64,000 nt of DNA from Eubacteriales bacterium (GCA_045541535.1 JAZQJG010000095.1:6701-70700); one strand, 5' to 3'; shown: positions 4,169 through 20,886, counted from the stretch's first letter. Made by a program: numbers and translations. Notes: generated by a model from the sequence alone, not told the origin.

Positions 4169-4186
4169 GTGCAAAAAAGGGGAATG

Positions 4187-4220
4187 AAATACCGAATTCA
4201 GAATTCTGAATTCGGTATTT
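4187..4220. repeat. Perfect 34-bp palindrome
   Basis: AAATACCGAATTCAGAATTCTGAATTCGGTATTT equals its own reverse complement and contains three GAATTC at 7-bp period. Confidence 0.9.
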
Positions 4221-4301
4221 TTTGGTTTTTGGCGCGATTGCGGTGGCGTCCACCCGGGTTGTTTGTGCTGTGTTGGGCGCCTTTGAGAGCTGACGGGAGT
4301 T

Positions 4302-4473
4302 GCAAAAGCGCCGAGTATGCCTGCCGGTGCTACCGGTGGGGGAAAGTGGTGAAAAAGGAGCGTTTTGTGGCGGAAATTTCCTGAAAACTGGGTAAAAGGG
4401 CGGGAGAATGGAGAAGAAGGGCGGTGGAATGGGGAGGCGCAAAAGCGCCGGGTATGCCTGCTGGTGCTACCGG
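4302..4473 (+). repeat. Pair of 35-bp direct repeats (4302-4336 and 4439-4473)
   Basis: GCAAAAGCGCCG(A/G)GTATGCCTGC(C/T)GGTGCTACCGG, 2 mismatches, 102 bp apart. Confidence 0.9.
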
Positions 4474-4565: not shown

Positions 4566-4796
4566 ATGGCGAAAAAGCTGAAGACGTTGTTTCGGCAGAC
4601 CTTGGAGGAAGAGGTGAGTGTGGCGGAGGGGCAGAGAATGACCCGACGGGATGCCATCGTGCTGGCGGTGATTGAGAAAGCGATGAAGGGAGATCTGCCG
4701 TCGGTAAACTTTATTCAGGCGTTGACGGAAAAGAAGGAAGACAAGCGGCAAAAGGTGGGTGAAGAAGTAATTCACGTGCGAGTGATAAAGGAGTGA
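4566..4796 (+). CDS. Putative terminase small subunit (short, 76 aa)
   Basis: Directly upstream of TerL with a GGAGGTG RBS. The helical segment AIVLAVIEKAMKGD...FI and terminal beta strand (VIHVRVI) resemble the TerS oligomerisation region. Confidence 0.55.
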   Translation: MAKKLKTLFRQTLEEEVSVAEGQRMTRRDAIVLAVIEKAMKGDLPSVNFIQALTEKKEDKRQKVGEEVIHVRVIKE

Positions 4797-4802
4797 GGTC
4801 CG

Positions 4803-6164
4803 ATGGAGCTGGAGCTGACGCCCCGTCAGTGGGCGTTTGTAAACGCAAAGGCGGATGAGGTGCTGTTCGGCGGGGCGGCAGGCGGGGGCAAAAGCTATGG
4901 TCAGTTGGCCGATGCGTTGCTTTTTGCGCTGCAATATCCCGGCAGCAGGCAGTTGTTGCTCCGCAGGACCTATCCCGAACTGGAAAAAAGCCTGGTCAGG
5001 GGGATGCTGGAGTTGTACCCGAGAAATTTGTTCAGTTATAAGAAAAGCGAGCATACGGGGAAATTTTGCAACGGCAGTATCATCGACCTGGGATATTGCG
5101 ACCACGAAAACGACGTGTACAAGTATCAATCGGCGGAATACGACGTGATCCGCTTTGACGAGCTGACCCACTTTACCGAGCAGATGTACGTGTATCTGAT
5201 CTCCCGTTTGCGCGGGGCCAACGGTTATCCCAAGCAGGTAAAATCCTCCACCAATCCCGGTGGCTTGGGTCACGGATGGGTCAAGGCACGGTTTGTGGAC
5301 ATCGGCGAGCCTGACAAGGAATACGCCTTTACGGCCGGAAGCCGCATTTTTTTGCCTGCGGGCGTGCGGGATAACCGATTTTTGATGACCAAGGATCCCG
5401 ATTACGTGCGACGGTTGGAAAATTTGTCCGAGCAGGACAAGCGGGCGTTGTTGTACGGGGATTGGGATTTGTTTGAGGGGCAGTTTTTTGATCTCTGGCG
5501 GCGGGAGCAACACGTGATCAGCCCCTTTCCCGTGGAGGAAAGCTGGCGGAAATATTTCGTGATGGACTATGGGCTGGATATGCTGGCGGCTTATCTGGTG
5601 GCGGTGGATGAGAGGGGCGATGCCTACGTTTATAAAGAGTTGTACGAGGGCAAGGACAACGGTGGCGCCGGACATATCGTGTCCTCGGCGGCAGAGAGGA
5701 TCAAGGAATTTACCCGTGGTGAGCGGATCCATTGTTATCTGGCGCCGCCTGATCTGTGGAGCCGACAGAAGGACAGCGGGAAGAGCATGGCGACCCTGTT
5801 TGGAGAGGCGGGGGTGCGGCTGACCAAGGCGCCCAACGCCAGAGTGCCCGGCTGGATGCAACTGAAGGAATGGTTGCGGCCGGTATTGCGGGAGGAGGGG
5901 CAGGTGCGGCCGCGGCTCAGGATCTTTTCCACCTGTGTAAATCTGATCCGCACCCTGCCTGCGCTGTTGTGCGATCCCAAGGATCCGGGAGATTGTATGC
6001 GGGTGCCCCACGAATTGACCCACGGACCGGATGCCCTGCGGTATTTTGCGGCCAGTTCTCCCAAGCGCCCGGCGGGAGAGCGGCGGGCGCCTGTCTATAA
6101 TTTTGCCTGTGAGCGGCCCAAAAGCGGTGGCGTGGGGCCGGGAGAGCGGGTACGGGTGATATAA
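4803..6164 (+). CDS. Phage terminase large subunit
   Basis: Walker A FGGAAGGGKS, Walker B IRFDELTHF, coupling motif STNPG, nuclease motifs VMDYG and HGPDALRY. Confidence 0.93.
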   Translation: MELELTPRQWAFVNAKADEVLFGGAAGGGKSYGQLADALLFALQYPGSRQLLLRRTYPELEKSLVRGMLELYPRNLFSYKKSEHTGKFCNGSIIDLGYCDHENDVYKYQSAEYDVIRFDELTHFTEQMYVYLISRLRGANGYPKQVKSSTNPGGLGHGWVKARFVDIGEPDKEYAFTAGSRIFLPAGVRDNRFLMTKDPDYVRRLENLSEQDKRALLYGDWDLFEGQFFDLWRREQHVISPFPVEESWRKYFVMDYGLDMLAAYLVAVDERGDAYVYKELYEGKDNGGAGHIVSSAAERIKEFTRGERIHCYLAPPDLWSRQKDSGKSMATLFGEAGVRLTKAPNARVPGWMQLKEWLRPVLREEGQVRPRLRIFSTCVNLIRTLPALLCDPKDPGDCMRVPHELTHGPDALRYFAASSPKRPAGERRAPVYNFACERPKSGGVGPGERVRVI

Positions 6165-6185
6165 AAATAAGAAAGGAGAAAAGGA

Positions 6186-6386
6186 ATGAACGTTTTATGT
6201 CTGATATCCGGCGTGGTGCTGGGTGTGGTGATCTACCGTCTGGGACGGTGGGAGGGGGAGAAGGGAAAAGTCCTGTTTCCCCTTCGTCACCCTAAGAGAA
6301 GAGAAACGGCGGATACGGGGCTGTTGCGACAGATCGAACGCTATGACGGAAAAGGTGAGAAAGGAAGAGAAGGATGGACAAGGTGA
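6186..6386 (+). CDS. Small hypothetical membrane-anchored protein
   Basis: N-terminal hydrophobic helix and AAGGAG RBS. Lies between TerL and portal. Confidence 0.6.
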   Translation: MNVLCLISGVVLGVVIYRLGRWEGEKGKVLFPLRHPKRRETADTGLLRQIERYDGKGEKGREGWTR

Positions 6387-7870
6387 CGAAGATCTGGGCC
6401 CGATACGAGGGGGCGTTGCGTCGGCAGGAACAGTTGGGTCTGCGGGCGGATACCGATAGAGCCTGGCATTTTTACGAGGGGGACCAATGGTATGGATTGG
6501 AATCGGCAGAGCAGTTACCGGTGTACAATTTTATTGCCCCCACGGTGAAATATAAAGTGGCCAACATTGCCATGAATCATATGCAGATCTATTTTTCTCC
6601 CTTACATACCGGTGCCAGAGAAAAACAGTTGGCCGCAAGGCTGAATGCGCTGGCCGCAAGTTGGTGGGAGCAACAGGGGATGGACGGCATTTGCTGGCAG
6701 ATGCTACGGGAAAGCGCCGTGGCGGGAGAAAGCTATCTTTACGTTTACAACGAAAAGGGCGATTGTCAGGTGCTGGACAACGTGAACGTTTTTCTGGGAG
6801 ATGACACCCAGAGAGATCTGCAAAAGCAACCGTATATTATTTTATACGAGCGGCGTCCGGTGGAGCAGGTGCGCAGTCTGGCGCAGGCTGTGGGCGTGGA
6901 TGCGGAATCGGTGGCCAAAATCGTAAGCGATGCCGAGGAGCGGCAACCGGTGGGAACGGTGACGGGTGATATGACGGACGACGGCAAATGCAGTTGTCTG
7001 CTGTTTATGAAAAAGGAAAAAGAGGGCATCCGATTCGTGCGGTGCACCAAGTACGTGCAGTTGGGCGAGGAGCAGATGATCACGGGGCTGGAGCGGTATC
7101 CCTTGATTCAGCTGGTGACGGCGCCCCGCAAGGGCTCGGCTCACGGTAGGGGTGAGGTATTACCCCTGATCCAGAATCAGATTGAGGTCAACCGCAATCT
7201 GGCCAGACGGATCATTAACGCCAAGATGACCGCCTATTCCCGCCTGGTGTATGCCACCGACAAGATCGACAATCCCGAAGCTCTGGGAGAGGTGGGCAGT
7301 GCCATTGCCGTCAACGACAGCAGTATTGCCGACGTACAGGATGCGGTGGGATACGTGACACCTTCGCCCATGTCGGGGGATGCGAAAATTATCTGTGATG
7401 AAATGATTGCCACCACCCGTGAGCTGGCCGGCGCCGGCAACGCTCTGACCGGCAACATTGATCCCAACATGGCCAGTGGTGCCGCCATTATTGCGGTGCG
7501 GGATCAGGCCCAGTTGCCTCTCAATGAGAATCTGGCGGCATACCGGGTGTTTGTGGAAGAGGTGGCACGGGTGTGGCTGGCGCTGTGGATCTGTTATTTT
7601 CCCATAGTTTTCTGTGTAAACGAAGATAACTTTACAGCGTTGGAGCTCAAGGCTTTGCGGCCTTATATTCGGGTGGATGCCACCTCCGGCACCCCCTTTT
7701 CCAAATATGCCAGAGAGCAGAGCTTGGAAAAGCTGTTGGAGGCGGGGCACATCACGCTGGAGGAGTTTACAACGGCGCTGGATGACGATTCCACCATCCC
7801 CAAGGCCCAACTGTTGGCCTTGCTCAGGCAACGAAAGGAGAAGATGAATGAAACCATTGAACAAAACTGA
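6374..7870 (+). CDS. Phage portal protein (P22/podovirus-like)
   Basis: 498 aa after TerL, with FYEGDQW, YNFIAPTV, Q..VNR and SGAAI motifs characteristic of P22-type portals. Confidence 0.8.
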   Translation: MDKVTKIWARYEGALRRQEQLGLRADTDRAWHFYEGDQWYGLESAEQLPVYNFIAPTVKYKVANIAMNHMQIYFSPLHTGAREKQLAARLNALAASWWEQQGMDGICWQMLRESAVAGESYLYVYNEKGDCQVLDNVNVFLGDDTQRDLQKQPYIILYERRPVEQVRSLAQAVGVDAESVAKIVSDAEERQPVGTVTGDMTDDGKCSCLLFMKKEKEGIRFVRCTKYVQLGEEQMITGLERYPLIQLVTAPRKGSAHGRGEVLPLIQNQIEVNRNLARRIINAKMTAYSRLVYATDKIDNPEALGEVGSAIAVNDSSIADVQDAVGYVTPSPMSGDAKIICDEMIATTRELAGAGNALTGNIDPNMASGAAIIAVRDQAQLPLNENLAAYRVFVEEVARVWLALWICYFPIVFCVNEDNFTALELKALRPYIRVDATSGTPFSKYAREQSLEKLLEAGHITLEEFTTALDDDSTIPKAQLLALLRQRKEKMNETIEQN

Positions 7871-8330
7871 TTTTTCCTGGCACGCCGATCAGCCGGACGT
7901 GCCGAATATGAGTGCGGCGGGAATGAAGGCGTTTTTGGATGCACCCATTGAAAGGCTGATGGAAAAGGTCAACGAGATCATCGGCGGGGAGGATGAGCAA
8001 AGTCTGGCCCGTTTGTCTGCCGCTTTAACGGAGGCGAAAACGGCGCTGGCAAATTTGGAAACGGTACTCCGAGAGGATCTTGCCTCTAAAGCCAATGTAA
8101 GCGACGTAAACGACGGACTGATGTATCTGGAATACAGGCTGCAGGAAGAAAACCTTCTGCCGCTGACGGCATCGGTGGACGAGCTTCGTTTGGCACGGGA
8201 GGATCATGCCCGTGAAATCAGCGAGCTTTCTGCCAATAAACAAAATCGCTTGACCGCCGGCGAGGGGATCGCCATTGAAAACGGCGTGATTTCTCTGAGC
8301 GTGGCAAGTGCGGAAGGGGGTAGCTATTGA
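7848..8330 (+). CDS. Coiled-coil virion/fibre-associated protein
   Basis: Heptad-rich. The C-terminal KQNRLTAGEGIAIENGVIS motif is of the kind seen in phage fibre proteins. Confidence 0.5.
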   Translation: MKPLNKTDFSWHADQPDVPNMSAAGMKAFLDAPIERLMEKVNEIIGGEDEQSLARLSAALTEAKTALANLETVLREDLASKANVSDVNDGLMYLEYRLQEENLLPLTASVDELRLAREDHAREISELSANKQNRLTAGEGIAIENGVISLSVASAEGGSY

Positions 8331-9085
8331 TGGGCAAGGTATTGACCGATACCGCCTCCCTGACGGCGGTGGCAGATGCCATCCGTGAAAAGAGCGGCGG
8401 GGAGGAAGCGCTGGTATTTCCCGAGGGCTTTGTGGCGGCAGTGGCCGGAATTGTCGGTGACGATTATGAGGTGGGATATACAAACGGGTATGCCGAATGC
8501 AATGCCATATTTAATCAGATAGCAAATTTTAGTGATGTGTTTTATGGGGCAACATTCCCCGAAGGTGCGGAATTAGAACTTGATATATCAAGATTGAAAA
8601 GTGGGTCTTTTGGAAACACATTTAGAGATAGCACGGGGCTGAAAAGTGTCAAACTGTATGGTAATAATACCGTGGCGTTATCTTTCGGTTGTACCTTTTG
8701 GGCGTGTAATAAGCTGGAGTTGGTTGATCTGTCCGAATGCAATTTGGTGTTGGGCTCACAGCAGTACAACGCTTTTTATGGGTGTAATGCTTTGAGGGAA
8801 ATCAAAGGTGTTTTGGATTTTACCGACGTCATCAGCACCAATAGTCCTTTTCCGGCTTGTTATGCTTTGGAAACGGTGACGTTTGCGCCGAACAGCATTT
8901 ATATTTCTTTGAATATGAATACATGTTATTCGTTGAGTGATGCGTCTATTCAATCCATCATTGACGGCTTGGCAGATCTTACCGATGGAACGGCACAGGT
9001 GCTGAGTCTGCATACCGACGTGAAGGCGAAATTGACGGAAGCACAGCTTGGGGCAATTACCGCAAAGAATTGGAGCGTGGCGTGA
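8327..9085 (+). CDS. Putative fibre/receptor-binding protein with LRR/BspA-like repeats
   Basis: N-terminal LTAVADAIREK...L.FP.GF anchor-like motif, repeats TFRDSTGL/TFWACNKL/AFYGCNAL, and C-terminal ITAKNWSVA. Confidence 0.55.
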   Translation: MMGKVLTDTASLTAVADAIREKSGGEEALVFPEGFVAAVAGIVGDDYEVGYTNGYAECNAIFNQIANFSDVFYGATFPEGAELELDISRLKSGSFGNTFRDSTGLKSVKLYGNNTVALSFGCTFWACNKLELVDLSECNLVLGSQQYNAFYGCNALREIKGVLDFTDVISTNSPFPACYALETVTFAPNSIYISLNMNTCYSLSDASIQSIIDGLADLTDGTAQVLSLHTDVKAKLTEAQLGAITAKNWSVA

Positions 9086-9258
9086 TGAGAAAGATCGTGG
9101 CAAAGGACGGTTGTTTTTGGACCAACGGGGTACAGATCAGCAGTGATAACGTGGTGTATCTCGGGGTAAAAGACAGCCCGGAGAACTGGCGGGAGATCAC
9201 CGCCGAGGAAAAGGCAGAGCGGGAGGAGCAGTATGAATTATCTGGTATATCCCTGTAA
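9085..9258 (+). CDS. Small hypothetical protein (possible fibre chaperone)
   Basis: ATG overlaps the upstream TGA. Contains VYLGVKDSPENWREIT. Confidence 0.5.
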   Translation: MRKIVAKDGCFWTNGVQISSDNVVYLGVKDSPENWREITAEEKAEREEQYELSGISL

Positions 9259-9940
9259 GAAAATGAAACTGACCCAGAATCACACCGACGGCAATCACAG
9301 GGCCCATTCGGCGGGAATCTCCGCCGATTATCCTGTGGATGAATGCTGTGGGGACACCGGCAGGGGCTGGTTTTACTGCCCTTGTGATGAAATGAAGGTG
9401 GTGAAGAAATACACCGCCGGGGTCAATACGGTGTGGCTGGAGAGCACGTCGCCGGTGGTGATGCCCGTGGGCAGCGCCTACGTCACCGTTATGGTGGAGC
9501 ATCTGAATGACGACGATATGGAAAAGCTGGCGGTGGGGCAGACCTTCCGAAGGGGAGAGAAAATGTTCCGTGAGGGCAAGGACGGCGCCACCGGCAATCA
9601 CTTCCATATGGCGGTGGGTACCGGTCACAAAAACGGTGGCGGCTGGAGTAAAAATTCCAAAGGCGCCTGGGTGCTGACCGTTACCGGCCGGCCCCTTACG
9701 GCCGACGAGGCCTTTTATCTGGAGGACACCGAGGTGATCAACGCCAAGGGGTATTCCTTTAAAACCAAACCGAAGGAGGAAAAAATGGATAACATTCCCG
9801 ATAAATACGCCGCCGCGGCGGTGGCGTGGGCGCTTCAGCAGAAGGTGCTGGTGGGCGATGAAAAAGGAGATCAGGGCTTGCATCAGCCCATTACCCGTCA
9901 GGATGCGGTGGTTATGATCTACCGTGCCATCGGTAAATAG
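9233..9940 (+). CDS. Endolysin-like M23-family peptidase with C-terminal SLH-like domain
   Basis: ATGNHFHM (HxH) motif and C-terminal YAAAAVAWA...G...PITRQDAVVMIYR. Adjacent to a holin. Confidence 0.7.
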   Translation: MNYLVYPCKKMKLTQNHTDGNHRAHSAGISADYPVDECCGDTGRGWFYCPCDEMKVVKKYTAGVNTVWLESTSPVVMPVGSAYVTVMVEHLNDDDMEKLAVGQTFRRGEKMFREGKDGATGNHFHMAVGTGHKNGGGWSKNSKGAWVLTVTGRPLTADEAFYLEDTEVINAKGYSFKTKPKEEKMDNIPDKYAAAAVAWALQQKVLVGDEKGDQGLHQPITRQDAVVMIYRAIGK

Positions 9941-9950
9941 GAGGATGAGC

Positions 9951-10385
9951 GTGGTGGAAAAAATCAAGATCGCAGGCGCCGTAATTTTTGGTCTGTTGAT
10001 CACCTATTGTCAGAAGTATTGGTTGCTGTACAGTCTGGTGGCGGTGGCGGTACTGATGGATCTTATCAGCGGTATGGCCGCCGCGGTGGTCAGCGGCGAG
10101 GGGCTGTCCAGTTCCTTGGCCCGCAAGGGGTTTGTGAAAAAACTGATGTTGTTGCTGGCGGTGGGCTGGGGCACCTTTTTGGACGTGCTGTTGCCCTACG
10201 CCGTCAGTGCTCTGGGGCTGGAGATACAGACGGGCTTGCTGTTTTCGGCGGTGATCTGCGTGTATATCTGCATCGGCGAAAGTATTTCCATTATGGAAAA
10301 CATCTGTCGGGCCACCGACCGTCAGCCGCCGGCCATCATTCGCAAACTGCTGGAGCAGGCGAGAGAAAAAATGGATGAAGAATAA
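9951..10385 (+). CDS. Phage holin (toxin secretion/phage lysis holin family)
   Basis: MDLISG...SS..ARKGFVKK...ESISIMEN motif and three hydrophobic segments. Start uncertain (9945, 9951 or 9954). Confidence 0.85.
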   Translation: MVEKIKIAGAVIFGLLITYCQKYWLLYSLVAVAVLMDLISGMAAAVVSGEGLSSSLARKGFVKKLMLLLAVGWGTFLDVLLPYAVSALGLEIQTGLLFSAVICVYICIGESISIMENICRATDRQPPAIIRKLLEQAREKMDEE

Positions 10386-10409
10386 TAGTTTGATGAGGAG
10401 ATTGGAATT

Positions 10410-10919
10410 ATGTTTGATGAAAATACGGTAAACGACGTACAGATGTCTGTCGTGGAGACATCAGAACCCACTTTGGAAAACAGTGGCTCGGAGGAGCAGA
10501 CGGCGGAGGTCACGGCCCGCCCCCAAAGCAGGGAGGAAAATGCTCATTTTCGTCGGATGCGTTTGGAAAACGAGCGCTTGCGAGCGGAAAATGAGGAGTA
10601 TGCGGCGGCAGCCATTCAGCGACAGATGGAGGAGGATCTGGCGGCCATCCGTCAGATGGCGCCCGAGGTCGTATCGTTGGAGGAATTGGGGGAGGAATTT
10701 GCCACCCTGATCGCCGCAGGTGTGAGCGCACCGGTGGCCTATGCCGCTCTGCAACAGGCCAAGCAGGGCAGTGTACCGCCCACCATGGGCGCCGTGAACG
10801 GTGAGAGCAGGGGAGAAAAGGCCTTTTATTCCCCCGCGGAGGTGGATGCGTTGAGTCCGGCACAATTGGCAGATCCCGGGGTCTGGGCCAGAGTGCGGGA
10901 ATCAATGACGAAATGGTAA
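10410..10919 (+). CDS. Putative capsid scaffolding protein
   Basis: Acidic, coiled-coil protein immediately upstream of the major capsid gene. Confidence 0.65.
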   Translation: MFDENTVNDVQMSVVETSEPTLENSGSEEQTAEVTARPQSREENAHFRRMRLENERLRAENEEYAAAAIQRQMEEDLAAIRQMAPEVVSLEELGEEFATLIAAGVSAPVAYAALQQAKQGSVPPTMGAVNGESRGEKAFYSPAEVDALSPAQLADPGVWARVRESMTKW

Positions 10920-10937
10920 AAACGAAAAGGAGAAAAA

Positions 10938-11756
10938 ATGAGCTATAACAATTTTAAACCCAGTGTTTGGAGTCAGTTTATTCAGAGAGAACTGGAGAAA
11001 AAGTGCCGCTTGGTAGAGGACTGCTGGAAGCAGTTTGAGGGCGAGGCCAAGCACGGCAAGCAGGTGAAAATTTTGGGTGTGGGCTCTCCCACCATCGGGA
11101 CCTACACCGGTCAGTCCATCGGCGCGCCCCAGGTGATGGACGACACCGTGATCAATCTGGATATTGATCAGGCCAAATACTTTAACTTTATGGTGGATGA
11201 CGTGGACCGTGCCCAGAGTGTGCCCGGTCTGATGGAGACTCTCATTAAGGAGGCCACCGCCAAGATGGCGCAGACCCGTGACAGCTACGTAGCCTCTCTG
11301 GCCGCCGAAAGCGAGCAGATGAGCGCCGCCACCGAGATCGGTACCCCCGAGGAGGCCAAGAAGGCCTTGGACGAGGCGCTGTTGAAGCTGCGTGAGAACG
11401 ACGTGGATCTGGAGGACGAGGTGGTCATTGAGGTGGCTCCCTTCTTCTATCAGTTGCTCAGAGACAATCTGGCGGCGGTGAAGACTGACAACGACGAGCT
11501 GATCGCTCACGGTGTGGTGGGAATGTACGACAACTGCCGTGTCAAGCTGTCCAACAATCTGTACAGTGACGGCACCGATACCTATATGATGGTTCGTACT
11601 AAGCGCGCTATTGCCTTCGCCGGCGCCATCGATCAGATCGAGGCCTACCGTCCCGAGACCCTGTTCAGCGATGCAATGAAGGGGCTCAACGTATACGGCG
11701 CCAAGATCGTGCGTCCCAAAGAGTTGTACGTAATCAAGGCCCACAAGGCTGCTTAA
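10938..11756 (+). CDS. Major capsid protein (HK97 fold, P22-coat-like family)
   Basis: FKPSVWS, VKILGVG, LDIDQAKYFNFMVDDVD and DAMKGLNVYGAKIVRP. Strong RBS. Confidence 0.85.
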   Translation: MSYNNFKPSVWSQFIQRELEKKCRLVEDCWKQFEGEAKHGKQVKILGVGSPTIGTYTGQSIGAPQVMDDTVINLDIDQAKYFNFMVDDVDRAQSVPGLMETLIKEATAKMAQTRDSYVASLAAESEQMSAATEIGTPEEAKKALDEALLKLRENDVDLEDEVVIEVAPFFYQLLRDNLAAVKTDNDELIAHGVVGMYDNCRVKLSNNLYSDGTDTYMMVRTKRAIAFAGAIDQIEAYRPETLFSDAMKGLNVYGAKIVRPKELYVIKAHKAA

Positions 11757-11758
11757 AC

Positions 11759-11785
11759 GGAGGGCGGGGGCAACCCCGCCTTCCC
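11759..11785 (+). terminator. GC hairpin after the capsid gene (partial terminator or stabiliser)
   Basis: GGAGGGCGGGG-gcaa-CCCCGCCTTCC with no long U tract. Confidence 0.55.
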
Positions 11786-11804
11786 TACGGGGAGGTGACT
11801 TTGA

Positions 11805-12332
11805 ATGACATTGGCGCAAGCCAAACGGATCGTCCGCTTTTTGTTGGATGCGGAGGTCTATTTTCAATATGAACATAAGCTGAACGCCTTTTTTGATCTG
11901 GGACAGAAGCGAATCGCCTGCACCACCGATTTTTTACAGGCGGAAAAAACGGTGGAAGCAGAGCGGGAAAGCGAAATTGATCTGGTGGCGCTGGACGACC
12001 GTTTTTACCGCCTGAAAAAGGTGGAGGGCGGCTCGTTTGAAAAACTGTCGCCCACCCGTATTCGTGTGGCGGCGGGTAATTATCGGTTGATCTACGAGCG
12101 GTATCCCGAGACCGTTGACGAGGAGACGACGGAGGAATACACCTTTGAGATCAGCGAGTTTGCCCAGACGGCGCTACCCTATTTTGTGGCCTCGCAAATC
12201 ACGGCGATGGAGCATGATCTGCGCTATCATCAGTTGTATGCCGATGAATTTGCCGCCATTTTGGAAAACGTGGCGGTGGCTCGCAAGGAAGGCAATCTGC
12301 ACGTGATCAGCACGGCGGGGTGGAGCAAATGA
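11805..12332 (+). CDS. Putative head-tail adaptor protein
   Basis: Position after the capsid gene. MTLAQAK N-terminal helix and ALPYFVASQ helical C-terminus, as in podovirus adaptors. Confidence 0.5.
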   Translation: MTLAQAKRIVRFLLDAEVYFQYEHKLNAFFDLGQKRIACTTDFLQAEKTVEAERESEIDLVALDDRFYRLKKVEGGSFEKLSPTRIRVAAGNYRLIYERYPETVDEETTEEYTFEISEFAQTALPYFVASQITAMEHDLRYHQLYADEFAAILENVAVARKEGNLHVISTAGWSK

Positions 12333-14371
12333 GATATTATGCAAGACGCAGAAATTATAATGCTCCTTCCGTCTATCTGCTGGGCGGCGGGGAACTGCAG
12401 GGAATGGATACCGGCAGTACCGTCTTACCGCCGGAGCGGGCGGCGCTGGCAGAAAATCTGTGGCGGGAGGCGGACGGCTGTGTTTGCAAGCGGCCCGGCT
12501 TTCGTTTGCAGGAGGATCTGCAGGTGGACGGGAAGATCCGCTGTGTCAGGGAATTCGGCGGGTATCGGTTTATCTACTACGAGAAAGAGCGAGGCGTGGC
12601 CTATTTACGACGGGAGCAGGGGAGTATACGGTTGGAACGACGGGTGAAGTCGCCGCTGACCATGCTCCCGTTCGGGGATCGGCTGTTGATTCTGACTCCC
12701 GGTGAATGGATCGTCGTGGACAGCGAAGGAAACATAAAGGCCCTGCGCAAGAATGGTGTTGCGTCGCTGAACTGGGACTGGGATGCACAACTTAATTTCA
12801 ACTGGAATCTGCGGCAGAGTGATCTGCGGGTGCCGCTGATCCGCAGTGGCTCCTCTCCCACGGGCAAGGGGTTGAATCTGCAACCGCCCAACGATCTGGT
12901 GCCGTTGGTACAGGAAAGCTTTGTTTACACCAAGAGTCATCAGGAGGCCAAGCGTAATCGGTTTTGTCTGCAAAAGCGGCCGGAGCTGATGGGCGCCTTA
13001 CCGGTGGACGAACAGGGAACGGCCCACGGTATCACCGAGGAGGAAAAGGCGATCCGTGTGGAAACGTTGGGGTTGAGCGCGCGGTTGGAGGTACGGTTGC
13101 TACGCACCGACGCCTATGGCAACACCACCGATTATTGGGCGGAGCGGCCGTGGGAGTATGCGGATAATATTTCCGCCACCGACGCCGCCTTCTGGATCCA
13201 CGGGATTCACGGAGCGGCGCTGGCTTACGACGGGGATGACAACGTGCGGATCACCTATTACGTGTCCCTTGCCGAGCAACGCAAAAAGGCGGAGAAGATC
13301 TTAAACGCCTTCTGTTATACGCTGTACGGCGTGGGCGGGCGGAAGGATCGGCTGTTTGCCGCCACCGACAATCAGATCTTTTACAGCGCCATGGACGATC
13401 CGCTTTATTTTTCCGAGCTGCAAAGGGTCACCTTGGGAGAGGGTGAGATTGGCATTCGGCTACTGGCAGGAGAGGATACGGTACTGACAGTATTGGCGGA
13501 TACGGGCGCCTGGCGGATCACCGGCAGTGCGGAAACGGAAGCCGGAGAATATGCGTTGGATGCCTATTTTTCCCTCTCTTTACGTCTGCCTTCCCCCAAG
13601 CCTGCCGGAAGGCAGTGTGTGGTAGCGGGCGGCGAGTTGTTGTTTTATTCCTACGAAGGATTGTGCGCGGTGACGCCCAGCGGTGTGTTGGACGAGCGAT
13701 GCGTGCAGATCCGTTCCCGTCGTCTGGAGGGATTACTGAAAAAAGAAAGTCCCGATGACATTCGTATGTATGCGTGGCAGAATTATCTGTTTCTGGCGGG
13801 GAAAAAGGGAATATATCTATTGGATTTACAACGTAAAGTCAAGGTCAGCGGCGACGCTTACAGCACCCACGGCTACGAGGGCTATTTCTGGCCGGGGATC
13901 GTGGCGGACAGCTTCGCTTCAGGCGATCGGCCGGCGATTTACAGCGAGGGATGCGCCTATATGCTGGCAAGCGGCAAGATATCAAGTGATTATCACGACG
14001 AGTGGTTGCTGGAGGGCAAATTACAGGAATTGCCCATTGCCGCCCGTTGGCAAAGCGGACGGATGATCGGTAATCCCGGTCGTTGTCAATGGTTTCGAGG
14101 GCTGATCTTGCATTGTGACGGGGCAACCGCTCTGCGCATCAAGGCGGAAGGGGAGCGGGGCGAGGTGACCCTGCACGATTACAGCGGGGCGCTGGGTGAA
14201 TTCCGCTATGGTTGGTTGTATTACGGACAACTGTATTACGGCTGTCAACCCAAAAGGGTGCGACGGTATCCCATCTCACTGTCCCACAGCCGATGGCTAC
14301 GGTTGACGCTGGAAAACGACGTGCCGGATCAGCCCTTCCGACTGCAGACCTACATCATTGAATATCAATAG
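12329..14371 (+). CDS. Putative tail nozzle/stabilisation protein (P22 gp10/T7 gp12-like beta-propeller)
   Basis: ~680 aa, beta-rich. AENLW...G.V.KRPGF N-terminal motif, RLF...IFYSAMDDPLYF, and position after the adaptor. Confidence 0.6.
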   Translation: MRYYARRRNYNAPSVYLLGGGELQGMDTGSTVLPPERAALAENLWREADGCVCKRPGFRLQEDLQVDGKIRCVREFGGYRFIYYEKERGVAYLRREQGSIRLERRVKSPLTMLPFGDRLLILTPGEWIVVDSEGNIKALRKNGVASLNWDWDAQLNFNWNLRQSDLRVPLIRSGSSPTGKGLNLQPPNDLVPLVQESFVYTKSHQEAKRNRFCLQKRPELMGALPVDEQGTAHGITEEEKAIRVETLGLSARLEVRLLRTDAYGNTTDYWAERPWEYADNISATDAAFWIHGIHGAALAYDGDDNVRITYYVSLAEQRKKAEKILNAFCYTLYGVGGRKDRLFAATDNQIFYSAMDDPLYFSELQRVTLGEGEIGIRLLAGEDTVLTVLADTGAWRITGSAETEAGEYALDAYFSLSLRLPSPKPAGRQCVVAGGELLFYSYEGLCAVTPSGVLDERCVQIRSRRLEGLLKKESPDDIRMYAWQNYLFLAGKKGIYLLDLQRKVKVSGDAYSTHGYEGYFWPGIVADSFASGDRPAIYSEGCAYMLASGKISSDYHDEWLLEGKLQELPIAARWQSGRMIGNPGRCQWFRGLILHCDGATALRIKAEGERGEVTLHDYSGALGEFRYGWLYYGQLYYGCQPKRVRRYPISLSHSRWLRLTLENDVPDQPFRLQTYIIEYQ

Positions 14372-14382
14372 GAGGGATACCT

Positions 14383-15045
14383 TTGACGATTATAGAAGCA
14401 TACGAGCGCTCGTATGCCCGAAGAAACCAGGGGGTGCGGCAAAAACTGGCCGCCAAAAAGAGCGCTTTACAAAAGAAAAAGCAACGGCTGTCGGTGGCGG
14501 GGGAGGAAGAAATGCGTTTGGCGTATGCCAAGCATATGCAGCTTTCTGCCCTGAAGGGACAGCAAAATCGGGCCAAGGGCCGTCACGGCGGCGCAGATGA
14601 AAATTCGGTGGCGGGATTGACCCAGAGTCACCGTCGTCAGCAGGAGCAACGCTTGCTCTCGGTGGAACAATCCAAGGCGGCGGTGGATAGTGAGATTCAA
14701 CAGGCTGAGGCTACGGCCCAGCGTTCCATTGCCAGCAACGAGCGGGAGCTGCAGCTTAAAAAGGATCAGCAGCAGATCAAGGAGGAGGCGGCCGCCGCCA
14801 AAGCGGCGACCAAAAGCTCCAAAAAGTCCGGAAGCAAGAGCAAGAGCAGTGTGGCCAAAACGGCATCCCAAAGCATCATTGAACAGATGCAGAAGGGAAA
14901 ATACAGCGAGGAATTTGCCGCTCAACTGGGCTGGACGGACGCCCAGGTACGGGCTTACGTTTATCAGGCTCGCAAAAATATTGCAGAGGCCAAGCGGGAG
15001 AAGGAAGGGCGGTTGCCCGGTACCTACAAGCCGGCCTTGCGCTGA
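14383..15045 (+). CDS. Basic coiled-coil protein, possible ejection/internal virion protein
   Basis: Q/K/A-rich helical protein with a GGAGGG RBS and TTG start. Last gene of the operon. Confidence 0.5.
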   Translation: MTIIEAYERSYARRNQGVRQKLAAKKSALQKKKQRLSVAGEEEMRLAYAKHMQLSALKGQQNRAKGRHGGADENSVAGLTQSHRRQQEQRLLSVEQSKAAVDSEIQQAEATAQRSIASNERELQLKKDQQQIKEEAAAAKAATKSSKKSGSKSKSSVAKTASQSIIEQMQKGKYSEEFAAQLGWTDAQVRAYVYQARKNIAEAKREKEGRLPGTYKPALR

Positions 15046-15095
15046 CAAACAAAAACACACTCTTGGAGCATGGCCCAAGAGTGTGTTTTTTGTTT
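15046..15095 (+). terminator. Terminator closing the phage-like operon
   Basis: AAAAACACACTCTTGG-loop-CCAAGAGTGTGTTTTTT. Confidence 0.85.
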
Positions 15096-15281: not shown

Positions 15282-16958
15282 ATGAAAAAAATGAGATCAT
15301 TGATCGTGCTGATGATCGTTCTGTGTATTGCGATGAGCATGATGGTCGCCTGCCGTCCCGCCGGTGAGGATGACGACGATATCATGTCCAACAACAATCC
15401 GACGGCAAACAACGGGGATAACCCCGGCGGTTCCGAAGGCGTGCTGGACGATGACGGTGACAACAACCCCTCCAACAGCACCAATACCAACACCCCTGGC
15501 AGCAACAACAGCAACACCCCCGGCAACAACAACAGCAACACTCCCGGCAACAACAATAACAACACCAACAATAATACGCCCGGCAACAATACCAGCGATA
15601 TTATCAGTAACCCCCTGATGAAGGAAGGCAAGAAGTACAACAACAACGCCGCCGTTTCCTTTGATCTGGATAAGACCGGTTTCTGTAAGAAGGGTACCCT
15701 TGCCGATCTGAAGGGCAAGACCCTGACCCTGTTTACCGGTGTAGACTACGGTATGTTCAGCTACTACAACAGCTCCAACAAGTACCTCAACGAGTGGGAT
15801 TGGTTTAAAGAGCTGAAGAGAACCTACGGCGTTACCATCAAGTACATCCGTTGTTCTCCCGGCGGCTCCAACGTTGTAAAGCCCTTCCAGGCAATGTCTG
15901 CCGGTAAGGACTGCGACTTGATCACCACCCACGTTGCTTCCTTCCCCTACATCTGCAACATTCTGGCTCCGCTGGATGATTATTGCAACTTCAGCAAGCT
16001 GGAGAATTCTCCCGGTCTGGATCCCCAGTCCACCCAGTTGACCCGTTGGAAGGGTAAAAACATCGTTCTGGGTCCCTGCCTGGATAACGGTTGCTTTAAC
16101 TACAACGCCACCTTCGTTAAGAATGCAGGTCTGGAGGATCCCTACGATCTGTGGAAGAAGGGCGAGTGGAACTGGACCAACTTCAAGAAGTATATGACCG
16201 GTTTGCCGGATACCACTGCGCAGGGTAAGGTCGTTTACGGCTGTGCTACCTGGTCTCAGTATTGGTACTGGGCAAATACTAACGGTGTTCCTTGCTTCGC
16301 CATCAACGGTGACGATCCCAACGGCGGTATCGTTAACAACTGGGATTCCGCAGAAGTTAAAGAGACTTACGTTTGGATGGAAGGCGTTATGGATGCCGGC
16401 GGTAACTACTACAGCGGTTCCGGCGGTGAGTTCTTCTGGAACACCCATAAGACCCATTATCTGGTTATGAATTACGGTACTTGCGGTGTTGACGTCGTAG
16501 GTATTCTGGAAGAGGAGAATAAGACCAACGATTACAGATGGTGTCCCTTCCCCAAAAACGAGAAGAATTCCAAAGCCGTTAACCACGTAGAGGTTTACGG
16601 TCGTTGTATCGGTATTCCCAGAAAGACCAATAAAGAGCAGAACAGAATCGCTGCCGTTAAATTCTGTGAGCTGTGGTGTAACCGTTATACCGAGGCCAGA
16701 TTTGACGCAATGATCACCCGCTCCAAGATGTCCTATGCCGAGGTTAAGGAGTTCTATGACTTCTCCAAGACCAACGGTAGAATGGGTATGGGCTCCGGTG
16801 TTGGTAAGCTGGCCTCCTTTGCAGGCTCCGGCACCAACGGTACCGACTTCAATATGTCCATTACCGACGCAGGTAAGTCTGTTGCAACCAGTATGGCAAA
16901 GCTTTCCAACTACGCTAAGCAAGAGGTTGCCAACGTTCTGAAATTCGGTATTCAGTAA
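15282..16958 (+). CDS. Lipoprotein, extracellular solute-binding-protein-like (copy 1, Asn-rich linker)
   Basis: Lipobox MMVA-C24, N/T/P/G linker, and YNATFVKNAGLEDPYDLWKKGEWNW motif of clostridial family-1 SBPs. Confidence 0.8.
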   Translation: MKKMRSLIVLMIVLCIAMSMMVACRPAGEDDDDIMSNNNPTANNGDNPGGSEGVLDDDGDNNPSNSTNTNTPGSNNSNTPGNNNSNTPGNNNNNTNNNTPGNNTSDIISNPLMKEGKKYNNNAAVSFDLDKTGFCKKGTLADLKGKTLTLFTGVDYGMFSYYNSSNKYLNEWDWFKELKRTYGVTIKYIRCSPGGSNVVKPFQAMSAGKDCDLITTHVASFPYICNILAPLDDYCNFSKLENSPGLDPQSTQLTRWKGKNIVLGPCLDNGCFNYNATFVKNAGLEDPYDLWKKGEWNWTNFKKYMTGLPDTTAQGKVVYGCATWSQYWYWANTNGVPCFAINGDDPNGGIVNNWDSAEVKETYVWMEGVMDAGGNYYSGSGGEFFWNTHKTHYLVMNYGTCGVDVVGILEEENKTNDYRWCPFPKNEKNSKAVNHVEVYGRCIGIPRKTNKEQNRIAAVKFCELWCNRYTEARFDAMITRSKMSYAEVKEFYDFSKTNGRMGMGSGVGKLASFAGSGTNGTDFNMSITDAGKSVATSMAKLSNYAKQEVANVLKFGIQ

Positions 16959-16964
16959 AATTTT

Positions 16965-16993
16965 AAAAGAGACGTCTTCGGACGTCTCTTTTT
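16965..16993 (+). terminator. Terminator
   Basis: AAAAGAGACGTC-ttcg-GACGTCTCTTTTT. Confidence 0.9.
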
Positions 16994-17113
16994 CTTGTGC
17001 ATATTAACTAATGTCAGTCATCCTTTTTTGTCAAAATTGCCAACTGTAATCCGGTAAAAATGTGTGTTATAATGAAACCGTATTTATAATATAGAAGAAA
17101 GGAAACAAAGCAT

Positions 17114-18841
17114 ATGAAAAAGTTTAGATCTTTGATTGTGCTGCTGATCGTTTTGTGTATTGCGATGAGCATGATGGTCGCCTGTCGTCCCGCTTCCGAG
17201 GACGATGACGATATCATTGCCAACAACAATCCTCAGACGAACGGCGAAAGTAATGATCCCGGCGCTTCTGAAGGTGACAACGGCACCGGCACCGGCGACA
17301 ATGGCACCGGCACCGGCGACAATGGTACCGGCACCGGCACCGGTAGCACCGGCTCCGGCAGTGGCTCCGGTAGCGGCAGTGGCTCCGGCTCCGGTAGCGG
17401 TAGCGGCTCCGGCAGTGGCTCCGGTAGCGGCAGTGGCTCCGGTAGTGGCAGTGGCTCCGGTGGCGGCAGTGGCTCCGGCGCTGTCAGCGACATCATCAGC
17501 AATCCTCTGATGAAGGAAGGCAAGAAGTACAATACCGGCGCTCCCGTATCTTTTGATATCGACAAGACCGGCTTCTGCAAGAAGGGTAGCCTTGCTGATC
17601 TGAAGGGCAAGACCTTGACCCTGTTTACCGGCGTTGACTACAGCATGTTCAGTTATTACAACGCTTCCAACAAGTATACCGGTGAGTGGGAGTGGTTTAA
17701 GGAACTGAAGAGAACCTACGGCGTTACCATCAAGTACATCCGTTGTTCTCCCGGTGGCTCCAACGTTGTAAAGCCCTTCCAGGCAATGTCTGCCGGTAAG
17801 GACTGCGACCTGATCACCACCCACGTTTCTTCCTTCCCCTACATCTGCAACGTTCTGGCTCCGCTGGATGATTATTGCAACTTCAGCAAGCTGGAGAATT
17901 CTCCCGGTCTGGATCCTCAGGCAACGCAGTTGACCCGTTGGAAGGGTAAGAACATCATCCTCGGCCCCTGTCTGGATAACGGTTGCTTTAACTACAATGC
18001 TACCTTTATTAAGAACGCAGGTCTGCCGGATCCCTATGATCTGTGGAAGAAGGGTGAATGGAACTGGACCAACTTTAAAAAGTATATGACCGGTCTGCCG
18101 GACACCAATGCTCAGGGCAAAACCGTTTTCGGTTGCTCCACCTGGAGCCAATGGTGGTATTGGTCCAACACCAACGGTATGCCTTGCTTCGCCATTGACG
18201 GTGAAGATCCCAACGGCGGTATCATCAACAACTGGGATAAGGCTGAAATCAAGGAAACTTACGTTTGGCTGGAAACCGTTATGGATGGCGGCGGCACCTA
18301 TTTTGACGGTGACGGCGGTCAGTTCTTCTGGAACACTCATAAGACTAACTATACCGTTATGAACTACGGCGCTTGTGGCTACGATATCGTAGGCATTCTG
18401 GAAGAGGAGAACAAGACCAACGATTACAGATGGTGTCCCTTCCCCAAGAATGAGAAGAACCCCAAGGCCATCAACCACGTAGAGGTTTACGGCCGTTGTA
18501 TCGGTATTCCCAGAAAGACCAACAAAGAGCAGAACAGAATCGCTGCCGTTAAATTCTGCGAGTTGTGGTGTAACCGTTACACCGAGGCCAGATTTGACTA
18601 TATGATCGCCCGTTCCAAGATGTCTTATGCCGAGGTTAAGGAATTCTATGATTTCGCTAAGACCAACGGTAGAATGGGTATGGGCTCCGGCGTTGGTAAG
18701 CTGGCGGGTCATGCCGGCGGCTCTACGGACTTTAACGCATCTATTCTGGATGCCGGTAAGTCTGTTGCTACCAGCATTGCCAAACTTTCTAACTTTGCCA
18801 AGCAAGAAATTGCCAACGTACAGAAGTTCGGTATTCAGTAA
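17114..18841 (+). CDS. Lipoprotein, solute-binding-protein-like (copy 2, Gly-Ser linker)
   Basis: Paralogue of copy 1 with the same lipobox and a (GS)n linker. Confidence 0.8.
   Translation: MKKFRSLIVLLIVLCIAMSMMVACRPASEDDDDIIANNNPQTNGESNDPGASEGDNGTGTGDNGTGTGDNGTGTGTGSTGSGSGSGSGSGSGSGSGSGSGSGSGSGSGSGSGSGSGGGSGSGAVSDIISNPLMKEGKKYNTGAPVSFDIDKTGFCKKGSLADLKGKTLTLFTGVDYSMFSYYNASNKYTGEWEWFKELKRTYGVTIKYIRCSPGGSNVVKPFQAMSAGKDCDLITTHVSSFPYICNVLAPLDDYCNFSKLENSPGLDPQATQLTRWKGKNIILGPCLDNGCFNYNATFIKNAGLPDPYDLWKKGEWNWTNFKKYMTGLPDTNAQGKTVFGCSTWSQWWYWSNTNGMPCFAIDGEDPNGGIINNWDKAEIKETYVWLETVMDGGGTYFDGDGGQFFWNTHKTNYTVMNYGACGYDIVGILEEENKTNDYRWCPFPKNEKNPKAINHVEVYGRCIGIPRKTNKEQNRIAAVKFCELWCNRYTEARFDYMIARSKMSYAEVKEFYDFAKTNGRMGMGSGVGKLAGHAGGSTDFNASILDAGKSVATSIAKLSNFAKQEIANVQKFGIQ
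17274..17479 (+). repeat. Coding tandem repeats (GDNGTGT)x3 and (GS)n
   Basis: GGCACC/GGCTCC/GGTAGC/GGCAGT hexamer array. Confidence 0.9.
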
Positions 18842-18852
18842 AATACATTTTG

Positions 18853-18880
18853 AAAGAGGCGCCTGCGGGCGCCTCTTTTT
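18853..18880 (+). terminator. Terminator
   Basis: AAAGAGGCGCC-tgcg-GGCGCCTCTTTTT. Confidence 0.9.
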
Positions 18881-18995
18881 CTTGTATAGAATGCCCAATA
18901 GCGGCCATTCTTTTTTGTCAAAAATGCCAACTGTTTAACGGTTGAAAAGTGTGCTATAATGAATCTGTAAATTCAAATGAGAAAGGAGTTTTACA

Positions 18996-20738
18996 ATGAG
19001 AAAATGTAAAGCTTTGATCGTACTGCTGATCATTTTGTGCATTGCGATGAGCATGATGGTAGCCTGTCGTCCCGCTGACGATGATGAAGGTGATATCATC
19101 AGCAATACCAATGGTGCAGTTGACAACGGTAATAATAATCCCGGCGCTTCTGAAGGTGACAACGGCACCGGCACCGGCGACAATGGCGCCGGCACCGGCG
19201 ACAATGGTACCGGCACCGGCACCGGTAGCGCCGGTAACGACTCCGGCACCGGCTCCGGTAGCGGCAGTGGCACCGGCTCCGGTAGCGGAAGCGGCTCCGG
19301 CAGTGGCTCCGGTAGCGGCAGTGGCTCCGGTAGTGGCAGTGGCTCCGGTGGCGGCAGTGGCTCCGGCGCTGTCAGCGACATCACCAGCAACCCTTTGATG
19401 AAGGAAGGCAAAAAGTATAACAACGGTGCGGCTTGCTCCTTTGACGTTGACAAGACCGGCTTTTGTAAAAAGGGTACCCTTGCCGATCTGAAGGGCAAGA
19501 CCATGACCCTGTACACTGCCGTTGATTACGGTCAGTTCAATTATTACAACGCATCTAACAAATACATCACCGAATGGGATTGGTTTAAGGAACTGAAAAG
19601 ACTGTACGGTCTTACCGTCAAATACGTGCGTTGCACACCCGGTGGTTCCAACGTTGTAAAGCCCTTCCAGGCAATGTCTGCCGGTAAGGACTGCGACCTG
19701 ATCTCCACCCACGTTTCTTCCTTCCCCTATATTTGTAACATTCTGGCCCCTCTGGATGATTATTGCAACTTTGACAAATTGCAAAATTCTCCCGGTCTGG
19801 ATCCTCAGGTAACTGAGTTGACCCGTTGGAAGGGCAAGAACATTGTTCTGGGTCCCAACCTGGTTAGCGGCGCCTGGAATTACAACTCCACCTTCGTTAA
19901 AAATGCGGGTCTTGACGATCCCTACGAATTGTGGAAGGCCGGTCAATGGAACTGGACCAACTATAAGAAATATATGGTCGGTTTGCCGGATACCACGGCA
20001 CAGGGTAAAGTCGTATATGGTTCCAACAGCTTGTCTCAGTACTGGTACTGGGCCAACACCAATGGCAAACCTTGCTTTTCGATCAATGGTGACGATCCCA
20101 ACGGCGGTATCATCAACAACTTCGACTCTGCCGAGGTCAAAGAGACCTACGTATGGTTGGAGGGCGTTATGGATGCCGGCGGCAACTATCTGAACACCAG
20201 CGTGGAAGGCTCCTTCTGGAACACCCACAAGACTACCTACGTTGTAATGAATTTCGGTAAGGTTGGCGTTGACGTAGTTGGTATTCAGGAAGAGGAGAAC
20301 AAGTCCAACGTTTACAAATGGTGTCCCTTCCCCAAGAATGAGAAAAACGCCAAGGCCATCAATCACGTAGAGGTTTACGGTTACGGTATCGGCATTCCCA
20401 GAAAGACCAATAAGGAACAAAACAGAATCGCCGCCGTCAAGTTCTGCGAGCTGTGGTGCAACCGCTATACCGAATCCAGATTTGACTATTTGACCGCACG
20501 TTCCAAGTGGACCTACGATCAGGTGGTTGAGTATTATGAATTTGGTAAGTCCAACGGCCGTATGGGTATGGGCTCCGGTGTTGGTAAGCTGGCCTCTCTG
20601 GCCGGTAACGGCGCCACCGCCACCAAGTTCAATCAGTCCATCACCGATGCCGGTTTGTCGGTATCCACTTGTATGGCAAAGCTTTCCAACTTCGCCAAAC
20701 AAGAGGTTGCCAACGTTCTGAAATTCGGTATTCAGTAA
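18996..20738 (+). CDS. Lipoprotein, solute-binding-protein-like (copy 3, Gly-Ser linker)
   Basis: Paralogue of copies 1 and 2. Confidence 0.8.
   Translation: MRKCKALIVLLIILCIAMSMMVACRPADDDEGDIISNTNGAVDNGNNNPGASEGDNGTGTGDNGAGTGDNGTGTGTGSAGNDSGTGSGSGSGTGSGSGSGSGSGSGSGSGSGSGSGSGGGSGSGAVSDITSNPLMKEGKKYNNGAACSFDVDKTGFCKKGTLADLKGKTMTLYTAVDYGQFNYYNASNKYITEWDWFKELKRLYGLTVKYVRCTPGGSNVVKPFQAMSAGKDCDLISTHVSSFPYICNILAPLDDYCNFDKLQNSPGLDPQVTELTRWKGKNIVLGPNLVSGAWNYNSTFVKNAGLDDPYELWKAGQWNWTNYKKYMVGLPDTTAQGKVVYGSNSLSQYWYWANTNGKPCFSINGDDPNGGIINNFDSAEVKETYVWLEGVMDAGGNYLNTSVEGSFWNTHKTTYVVMNFGKVGVDVVGIQEEENKSNVYKWCPFPKNEKNAKAINHVEVYGYGIGIPRKTNKEQNRIAAVKFCELWCNRYTESRFDYLTARSKWTYDQVVEYYEFGKSNGRMGMGSGVGKLASLAGNGATATKFNQSITDAGLSVSTCMAKLSNFAKQEVANVLKFGIQ
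19155..19367 (+). repeat. Coding tandem repeats (GDNG[TA]GT)x3 and (GS)n
   Basis: Near-identical to the copy 2 array. Confidence 0.9.
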
Positions 20739-20750
20739 AATTTGTTATTC

Positions 20751-20782
20751 AATAAGGAGTCGCTTTGGCGACTCCTTATTTT
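20751..20782 (+). terminator. Terminator
   Basis: AATAAGGAGTCGC-tttg-GCGACTCCTTATTTT. Confidence 0.9.
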
Positions 20783-20886
20783 CTTTATACAAAAATAAAT
20801 TCAAAAATTTGTTAGGTTTGACAACTTCATTTTTCGGGAGGGGGTATGGTATAATAGAATTATAAGAATAAAAGGAGGGGATCGGT

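Follow-up and report, generated by a model that had tools for sequence, protein, structure and literature searches.

We analysed a 64,000-nt stretch of DNA (the window) from Eubacteriales bacterium GCA_045541535.1, in which a cluster of phage-type genes occupies positions 4566-15045. An earlier interpretation, here called the sequence-only reading, had proposed that this cluster may be a domesticated podovirus-derived element resembling a gene transfer agent (GTA) and not a decaying prophage. Its description of the locus was partly confirmed: the open reading frames (ORFs), the borders and the identities of the core genes stood, and the position of the lysis genes, the M23/SLH lysin and the small terminase TerS did not. 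ORF calling yielded 14 intact, co-oriented ORFs (g01-g14) on the plus strand, and exactly the same 14 were returned by a codon-model gene caller trained on the organism's own genome, with positive coding scores throughout. According to the ORF coordinates, neighbouring genes overlapped at 7 of the 13 junctions, in keeping with the overlapping starts described earlier. The predicted terminators on both sides were also recovered as strong terminator-like hairpins on the plus strand. The first (4186-4221), with a 16-bp stem followed by a T run, ends the upstream Asp-Al_Ex permease gene and forms the left limit of the cluster region; the second (15051-15090) closes the cluster. Two Rfam hits on these hairpins, RsaE-like (45 bits, cut-off 79) and mir-578-like, were sub-threshold and were rejected as chance.

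The region between the left hairpin and g01 includes a non-coding segment (4295-4473, plus strand) with two copies of a 42-nt direct repeat, at 4295-4336 and 4432-4473, which are 90% alike and 137 nt apart. These two copies are all that the genome contains, and none was found in 14 related loci at up to 8 mismatches. The segment is a possible regulatory site, and the repeat pair may represent either the binding site of a regulator or a local duplication. No tyrosine or serine recombinase was found on the whole 80,437-bp contig (C95), and a repeat search revealed no att-like repeat pairing the left and right flanks of the cluster, which agreed with the lack of an integrase and att repeats reported before. 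There was no tRNA gene near the cluster, the single tRNA gene of the window lying at 47890. Codon use of the 14 genes was within the host range, with the capsid gene in the 99th percentile of host genes.

The genes for DNA packaging and the head were identified mainly by family matches, which upheld the earlier assignments of TerL, portal and capsid. The large terminase TerL (g02, 4803-6164, 453 aa) matched PF03237 and phrog_979 (E = 1.7e-48), and its translation contains the sequences GGAAGGGKS and VIRFDE, which we take to be the Walker A and Walker B motifs of the ATPase that had been claimed. The portal protein (g04, 6374-7870, 498 aa) is of the P22 type, with matches to PF16510 and phrog_156, and the major capsid protein (g11, 10938-11756, 272 aa) matched phrog_267 (E = 1.5e-40) and gp6 of PDB 8e16 (E = 1.7e-29); an atlas search gave the family name PF25209. 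Immediately upstream of the capsid gene in 33 loci lies the counterpart of g10 (10410-10919, 169 aa), which had no family match and is a probable scaffolding protein from its position and size. A small ORF between TerL and portal, g03 (6186-6386, 66 aa), is present in the related genomes G002 and G005, and the same position is occupied by small ORFs in other genera; searches of Pfam and PHROGs gave no family match for it.

The first gene, g01 (4566-4796), had been called TerS-like. We found just a 76-aa DUF5681 protein (PF18932, E = 2.2e-7), which is a candidate small terminase-like or packaging accessory protein from its position before TerL. This family is kept before TerL in all three genera of the host family. 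No relation to the phrog_51 TerS of the sister prophages described below was detected (hhalign probability 0.8%), and a PDB search gave no match. In G006, a genome of the same genus, a DUF5681-like ORF with 37% identity to g01 lies between the endolysin and holin genes and not before TerL (L085 724-924, G006:C28).

The tail genes follow the capsid gene, and here fold prediction supported the podovirus-type adaptor and nozzle that had been suspected. The product of g12 (11805-12332, 175 aa) is predicted to be a tail adaptor of the podovirus gp11 or tail tubular protein A type. Its AlphaFold2 (AF2) model, built with 18 homologues, had a predicted local distance difference test (pLDDT) score of 92.3, and its best Foldseek matches were tail or adaptor chains of phages B2, N4, SU10, KHP30 and GP4 (E = 2e-5 to 1e-3, template modelling (TM) score 0.6-0.7). 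The product of g13 (12320-14371, 683 aa) is a predicted tail nozzle of the T7 gp12 or P22 gp10 type: with 21 homologues its AF2 model reached a pLDDT of 81.6, the best 29 Foldseek matches were all podovirus tail complexes, including T7 gp12, P22 gp10 and Sf6 (E = 8e-16 to 3.5e-8), and its sequence profile matched tail tubular protein B (9k09_U, E = 3.7e-8). The adaptor and nozzle share only 9-16% identity with the solved chains. Family searches matched none of the 14 products to a tape measure, tube or sheath family. The two predicted folds thus suggest a particle of the short-tailed type. The last gene, g14 (14383-15045), encodes a basic coiled protein of 220 aa, the partner behind the nozzle, and homologous proteins follow the nozzle in other genera and in prophages (hhalign 97.6%, E = 2.7e-12). 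It had no family match and is a putative plug or ejection protein. The earlier labels ejection-like, scaffold and fibre-like were not confirmed and stand as candidate roles.

Between the portal and the scaffold gene lie fibre-like and lysis genes. We found that g05 (7848-8330, 160 aa), with a conserved N-terminus and a weak match to the tail fibre family phrog_14469, is a probable tail-fibre anchor; its counterparts in G002 and G005 are 41% identical and longer (285 and 955 aa). The adjacent g06 (8327-9085, 252 aa) encodes a variable leucine-rich repeat (LRR)-like protein, with a weak LRR_5 match, and is probably the receptor-binding part. It has a low guanine-plus-cytosine (GC) content of 0.467 and no homologue in any relative examined. 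In contigs of two other samples the stretch 8451-8946 of g06 was swapped for 475-485 unrelated letters, and the depth of these replacement letters was two to three times that of the adjoining contigs. To judge from this pattern, the stretch looks like a swappable receptor-binding cassette. The small gene g07 (9070-9258, 62 aa) had a positive coding score, and neither a homologue in relatives nor a family match. The endolysin (g08, 9233-9940, 235 aa) was identified by phrog_9066 (E = 1.8e-13); the M23/SLH lysin proposed before was not recovered, as its sequence matched neither M23 nor SLH in a Pfam search with a cut-off as loose as E<=10. The holin (g09, 9924-10385, 153 aa) matched PF05105 (E = 1.8e-18) and phrog_199, as expected. 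These lysis genes, which the earlier description listed last, lie in the middle of the cluster (9233-10385) and not at its end. In contigs of three other samples, 218 extra letters were found between the holin and scaffold genes (10385-10396).

We then considered how the cluster is distributed. The genomes compared within the host family were all metagenome-assembled. The capsid gene was present in 29 of 41 relatives, including 23 of the 24 other genomes of the host family, and a family-wide search extended this to 48 of 49 species genomes in three genera, so that occurrence was not patchy at the level of species. In the genus of the window the surroundings were largely shared. The cluster lies behind the same permease gene in G002 and G003, the same lipoprotein paralogues lie behind it in G005, and in G006 an 11-kb block separates the permease gene from TerL. 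The idea that this insert consists of phage genes was rejected; it is a host block that is found on another contig in this genome. Of the other two genera, one (g3) has both flanks in common among four genomes and the other (g2) has the downstream flank in common between two. All 10 flanking proteins tested in g2 and g3 were ordinary cellular proteins, among them an ABC transporter, DUF711, an aminotransferase, an epimerase, a kinase, NUDIX, SpoIID and SLH proteins. SLH proteins near the clusters of other genera were rejected as a sign of shared synteny, since they merely have common SLH domains. Among the matches listed in family-wide searches, including PF00589, the tyrosine or serine recombinases nearest to any of the 17 primary copies cross-checked lay 65 kb (G011) and 50 kb (G007) away, so that a radius of about 50 kb around each copy was free of them. 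This is the conserved gene order without integrase that the sequence-only reading had suggested looking for. The codon-model caller under-calls in four low-GC loci (L016, L037, L043 and L051), and these were excluded from the gene maps.

The distribution was matched by phylogeny. RpoB identity to this genome was 89-97% within the genus, 77-80% in the two remaining genera and 66-76% in genomes from outside the family, and capsid identity fell in step (81-92%, 67-74% and 62-65%). In capsid, TerL and portal trees the primary copies of each genus formed a single clade. The RpoB groupings (G007,G009), (G016,G010) and (G000,G002),G005 recurred in the trees of TerL and portal; the capsid tree recovered (G007,G009) and left the other two unresolved. 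The trees thus mirror the host phylogeny at genus level and in several within-genus pairs. In the least saturated genome pair, G007-G009, synonymous divergence (dS) was 0.63 for rpoB and 0.59, 0.60 and 0.65 for capsid, TerL and portal, respectively, the equality that co-divergence of cluster and host predicts.

The ratio of nonsynonymous to synonymous divergence (dN/dS) was 0.005-0.43 in 46 of 46 usable gene-pair comparisons from eight genome pairs; values far below 1 had been anticipated. One further comparison was saturated, and most pairs other than G007-G009 and G000-G002 were near saturation. Full-length ORFs were found for TerL (17/17), portal (17/17), scaffold (18/18), capsid (22/23), adaptor (13/13) and nozzle (8/9), counting only genes with a tblastn match over at least 60% of the query, so that most nozzle genes of g2 and g3 are not in these numbers; in the gene maps the latter measured 628-689 aa where called. 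The incomplete capsid ORF was cut by a contig end, and the incomplete nozzle is a split gene in G005. Collectively, these data show that the cluster is chromosomally inherited in nearly all species of the family and that purifying selection acts on it.

Some genomes of the family contain extra, more divergent copies of the cluster, and several of these belong to prophages. In G010b (L024/L134) a serine integrase precedes TerL by about 10 kb, and a replication initiator and a phrog_51 small terminase are also present; in G018b (L025/L136) a tyrosine integrase lies about 15 kb upstream and is accompanied by a repressor-like regulator and a replication initiator; and in G018c the distance between capsid gene and integrase is 6 kb. 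Between the integrase and packaging genes of G010b there is also a diversity-generating retroelement with a reverse transcriptase and Avd (L134 2598-4207, G010:C38). Behind the nozzle module of G010b, G018b, G014 and G006b we found a protein of 1800-2700 aa. The sister prophages G010b and G018b share a homologous module with the primary clusters, in the same order of TerL, portal, scaffold, capsid, adaptor, nozzle and g14/c8, and differ by the addition of the integrase, repressor, replication initiator, phrog_51 TerS and giant protein and, in G010b, the retroelement. Gene maps and family searches detected none of these five additions in the primary clusters, which have the DUF5681 protein where the prophages have phrog_51 TerS. 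In the trees the prophage copies formed long branches of their own. Temperate phages that are complete and carry the same structural module exist beside the cluster as separate lineages.

These results suggest that the cluster is a host-owned, podovirus-derived set of particle genes, that is, a GTA-like element or viriform, an interpretation of gene content and conservation to which we assign a probability of about 0.62. Every computational test run supported domestication over a decaying prophage. Several observations weigh against the interpretation. One genome of the family, G001 (94% complete), gave neither a capsid nor a TerL match; its contig stops within the permease gene that lies next to the cluster in other genomes, so this is not evidence of absence. 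The chromosomal site differs among the three genera, and the order of deep branches differs among the capsid, TerL and portal trees (quick trees). A single ancient domestication is therefore plausible, not proven, and replacement by, or exchange with, related phages is possible. For G000-G002, cluster dS (0.9-1.9) exceeded that of rpoB (0.62) and of adjacent genes (0.16-0.48). The nozzle gene of G005 (L014 11373-13375) is split by a frame change near 12630, and the same split is present in the viral-collection copy L035; the gene is either a genuine pseudogene or was wrongly assembled. The capsid family also forms larger capsids (PDB 8e16, 9 chains), so a small head is not implied.

The last point of this kind came from the phage databases, where all matches were below 60% identity. 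The best, MT836592.1 (L033), is an unverified 9,588-bp virome scaffold from human faeces with a GC content of 0.594. Its ten ORFs, among them those for TerS, TerL, portal, scaffold, capsid and nozzle, follow the order of the cluster. This virome scaffold has no terminal repeat, and its borders coincide with the cluster borders. It could be a self-packaged element in that lineage or the product of a chance assembly break. Among the matches listed, the closest named capsid to that of MT836592.1 is encoded in the Acidaminobacterium chupaoyuni chromosome (74%).

If the cluster is such a GTA-like element, its genes suggest how it might work. A host signal would cause the operon to be transcribed, in a fraction of cells, from the region upstream of g01. 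Capsids would assemble on the portal with the g10 scaffold, and TerL would fill them by headful packaging, with the DUF5681 protein replacing a sequence-specific small terminase. As no sequence-specific small terminase would be involved, we propose that the packaged fragments are mostly random chromosomal DNA. The adaptor, nozzle, g14 and the variable fibre (g05 and g06) would finish the short tail, and holin and endolysin would lyse the producer cell. The particles would then either carry DNA to kin, which would make the element a true GTA, or serve another end in the manner of PBSX.

This last step gives rise to the strongest alternative, in which a domesticated particle is kept for a purpose besides gene transfer, such as PBSX-like killing, lysis or DNA release, with DNA packaged and no productive delivery. 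The evidence from conservation and selection fits it equally, and variation of the fibre part between strains is what a targeting device would show. The authors who described FpGTA, the GTA of Faecalibacterium prausnitzii, leave the same option for their own element (PMC12946183, section 10). The terminase, portal, adaptor and nozzle are intact under purifying selection, which speaks for the importance of packaging DNA and of a channel for its exit, and on balance we regard a non-transfer function as a minority explanation, to be given perhaps one chance in several.

Another explanation is that the cluster is a mobile satellite or mini-phage that depends on a helper phage or a remote recombinase for excision and replication, packages itself and repeatedly enters the same sites. 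Homologous clusters do occur as 5-33-kb contigs in viral collections and as the 9.6-kb virome scaffold, the same family harbours related complete prophages, and the G000-G002 comparison, with cluster dS above that of the flanks, points the same way. At least one viral-collection contig (L035), on the other hand, agrees in gene content with part of the chromosome of a family genome. In two bulk gut metagenomes we found contigs with the cluster at 95-99% identity, which bridge the right border into the lipoprotein gene; cluster and flanks were covered to the same depth, which was about 10 in X1 and about 15 in X2, and none of the joints listed skips the cluster. Moreover, the site lacks a recombinase, att repeats and a tRNA gene; nearly all genomes of the family have the cluster, which forms a single clade in each genus; and in G007-G009 its dS is equal to that of rpoB. 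We therefore consider a satellite improbable. A metatranscriptome (X12) contained small contigs on TerL, portal and nozzle at neighbour-like depth, which were not used as evidence of expression since they may derive from DNA carry-over. No sequencing run reached half of the sequence words, and no habitat claim is drawn. Finally, a recently inactivated prophage remnant heading to decay is very improbable: it would account for the missing integrase, repressor and replication genes and for the split nozzle gene of G005, but all 14 ORFs are intact, codon use is host-adapted, the cluster is kept across genera with RpoB only 77-80% identical, and the dN/dS range and distribution contradict it.

Compact clusters with distant homologues were also found in other families of the order. 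No tyrosine recombinase was found on the same contigs, and in the complete genome G033, from a family in which 5 of 10 genomes have the cluster, the nearest was about 480 kb away. A broader scenario, which we offer tentatively and hold to be less probable than its negation, is that single-locus GTAs derived from podoviruses have radiated across the whole order in gut Clostridia, with the cluster studied here as one of the branches. Such elements would be fixed long-term in genera or families, having arisen from living temperate podoviruses with which they still exchange modules, and domestication would consist of exchanging a sequence-specific small terminase for DUF5681 and losing the giant virion protein. 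FpGTA would be either the first sampled member or an independent parallel. Because intact sister prophages occur in the same genomes, they permit a direct comparison of the states before and after domestication. By this comparison, domestication would have removed the integrase, repressor, replication genes, canonical TerS and giant virion protein and kept packaging, head, short tail and lysis. Should the particles indeed transfer host DNA, this route of gene exchange may be open to a large proportion of gut Clostridia.

The genes on either side of the cluster agreed with its described place between metabolic genes and a lipoprotein array. Upstream lie genes for a ferredoxin-like protein, an FAD flavoprotein and the Asp-Al_Ex permease. 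Compared with G002 (L013), the ferredoxin-like and flavoprotein genes (488-2796) had a dS of only 0.16-0.23, against 0.62 for rpoB, which points either to strong constraint on codon use or to an exchange of this stretch in recent times. Downstream there are genes for three paralogous lipoproteins with lipoboxes and for a fourth paralogue with three SLH domains. The four proteins of this array (15282-22896) measure 558-669 aa and are 58-61% identical over a common C-terminal part of 440 aa, for which no Pfam or NCBIfam match was found. The signal peptides of lipoproteins and low-complexity linkers occur in three of them, and it is paralogues of this array that also lie behind the cluster in G005.

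To our knowledge, few GTAs have been described outside Alphaproteobacteria. The alphaproteobacterial RcGTA is siphovirus-like, with a tape measure and tail tube, accessory loci and control by CtrA and GafA, and its TerS does not bind DNA sequence-specifically. The cluster resembles RcGTA as a host-kept head-tail cluster that lacks replication and integration genes, with vertical inheritance, purifying selection, host-like or optimised codons and release by lysis. Here, g01 is suspected to be a TerS of the same kind, without sequence-specific DNA binding. The cluster differs from RcGTA in its podovirus-type tail, with adaptor and nozzle, and in that everything seen lies in one locus. The tail machines of P22 and T7 are similar in the P22-type portal and the predicted adaptor and nozzle folds, and the order of capsid, adaptor, nozzle and small protein resembles what we take to be the P22 order gp5-gp4-gp10-gp26. 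These machines differ from the cluster, in which no tailspike, needle or ejection-protein set is recognisable.

The closest counterpart is FpGTA (Borodovich et al., Nat Commun 2026, PMC12946183; preprint 10.1101/2024.11.15.623857). FpGTA has a 10.5-kb operon of ten ORFs, encoding a TerS in which no DNA-binding domain is obvious, TerL, portal (RCH50851.1), scaffold, capsid (RCH50849.1) and proteins homologous to those of short-tailed phages, and a second operon of 5.5 kb, about 125 kb away, with fibre, baseplate and lysis genes (PMC12946183). Its products dominate particles of about 40 nm that hold DNA of about 9 kb, electron microscopy and proteomics are available for it, and its authors claim it as the first podovirus-like GTA (PMC12946183). 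A podovirus-type GTA of Clostridia, which the sequence-only reading did not know to be characterised, has thus already been described, so that its idea was sound and is no longer new in kind. The titles listed in a literature search for gene transfer agent and podovirus included no further podovirus-like GTA, and the name FpGTA was met in this one article. Among the best 120 matches each for the window capsid, a distant-capsid profile and the MT836592.1 capsid, there was no Faecalibacterium-named protein, and the likeness to FpGTA is one of architecture only: an operon of about 10.5 kb in gut Clostridia, with a small first protein, TerL, portal, scaffold, capsid and short-tail proteins. Both are also near-ubiquitous in their host clade, with no replication genes and with lysis by holin and endolysin. 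They differ in that the fibre and lysis genes of FpGTA stand in its second operon, whereas here they lie inside one 14-ORF locus (7848-10385), between portal and scaffold. FpGTA particles and their packaged DNA have been seen, whereas the present cluster is known from its genes, in a different, uncultured host family. The same kind of element would thus be fixed in 48 of 49 species of another, uncultured gut family, with all modules in one operon, and what this adds to FpGTA is an arrangement in one locus, a new host family and sister prophages that are informative.

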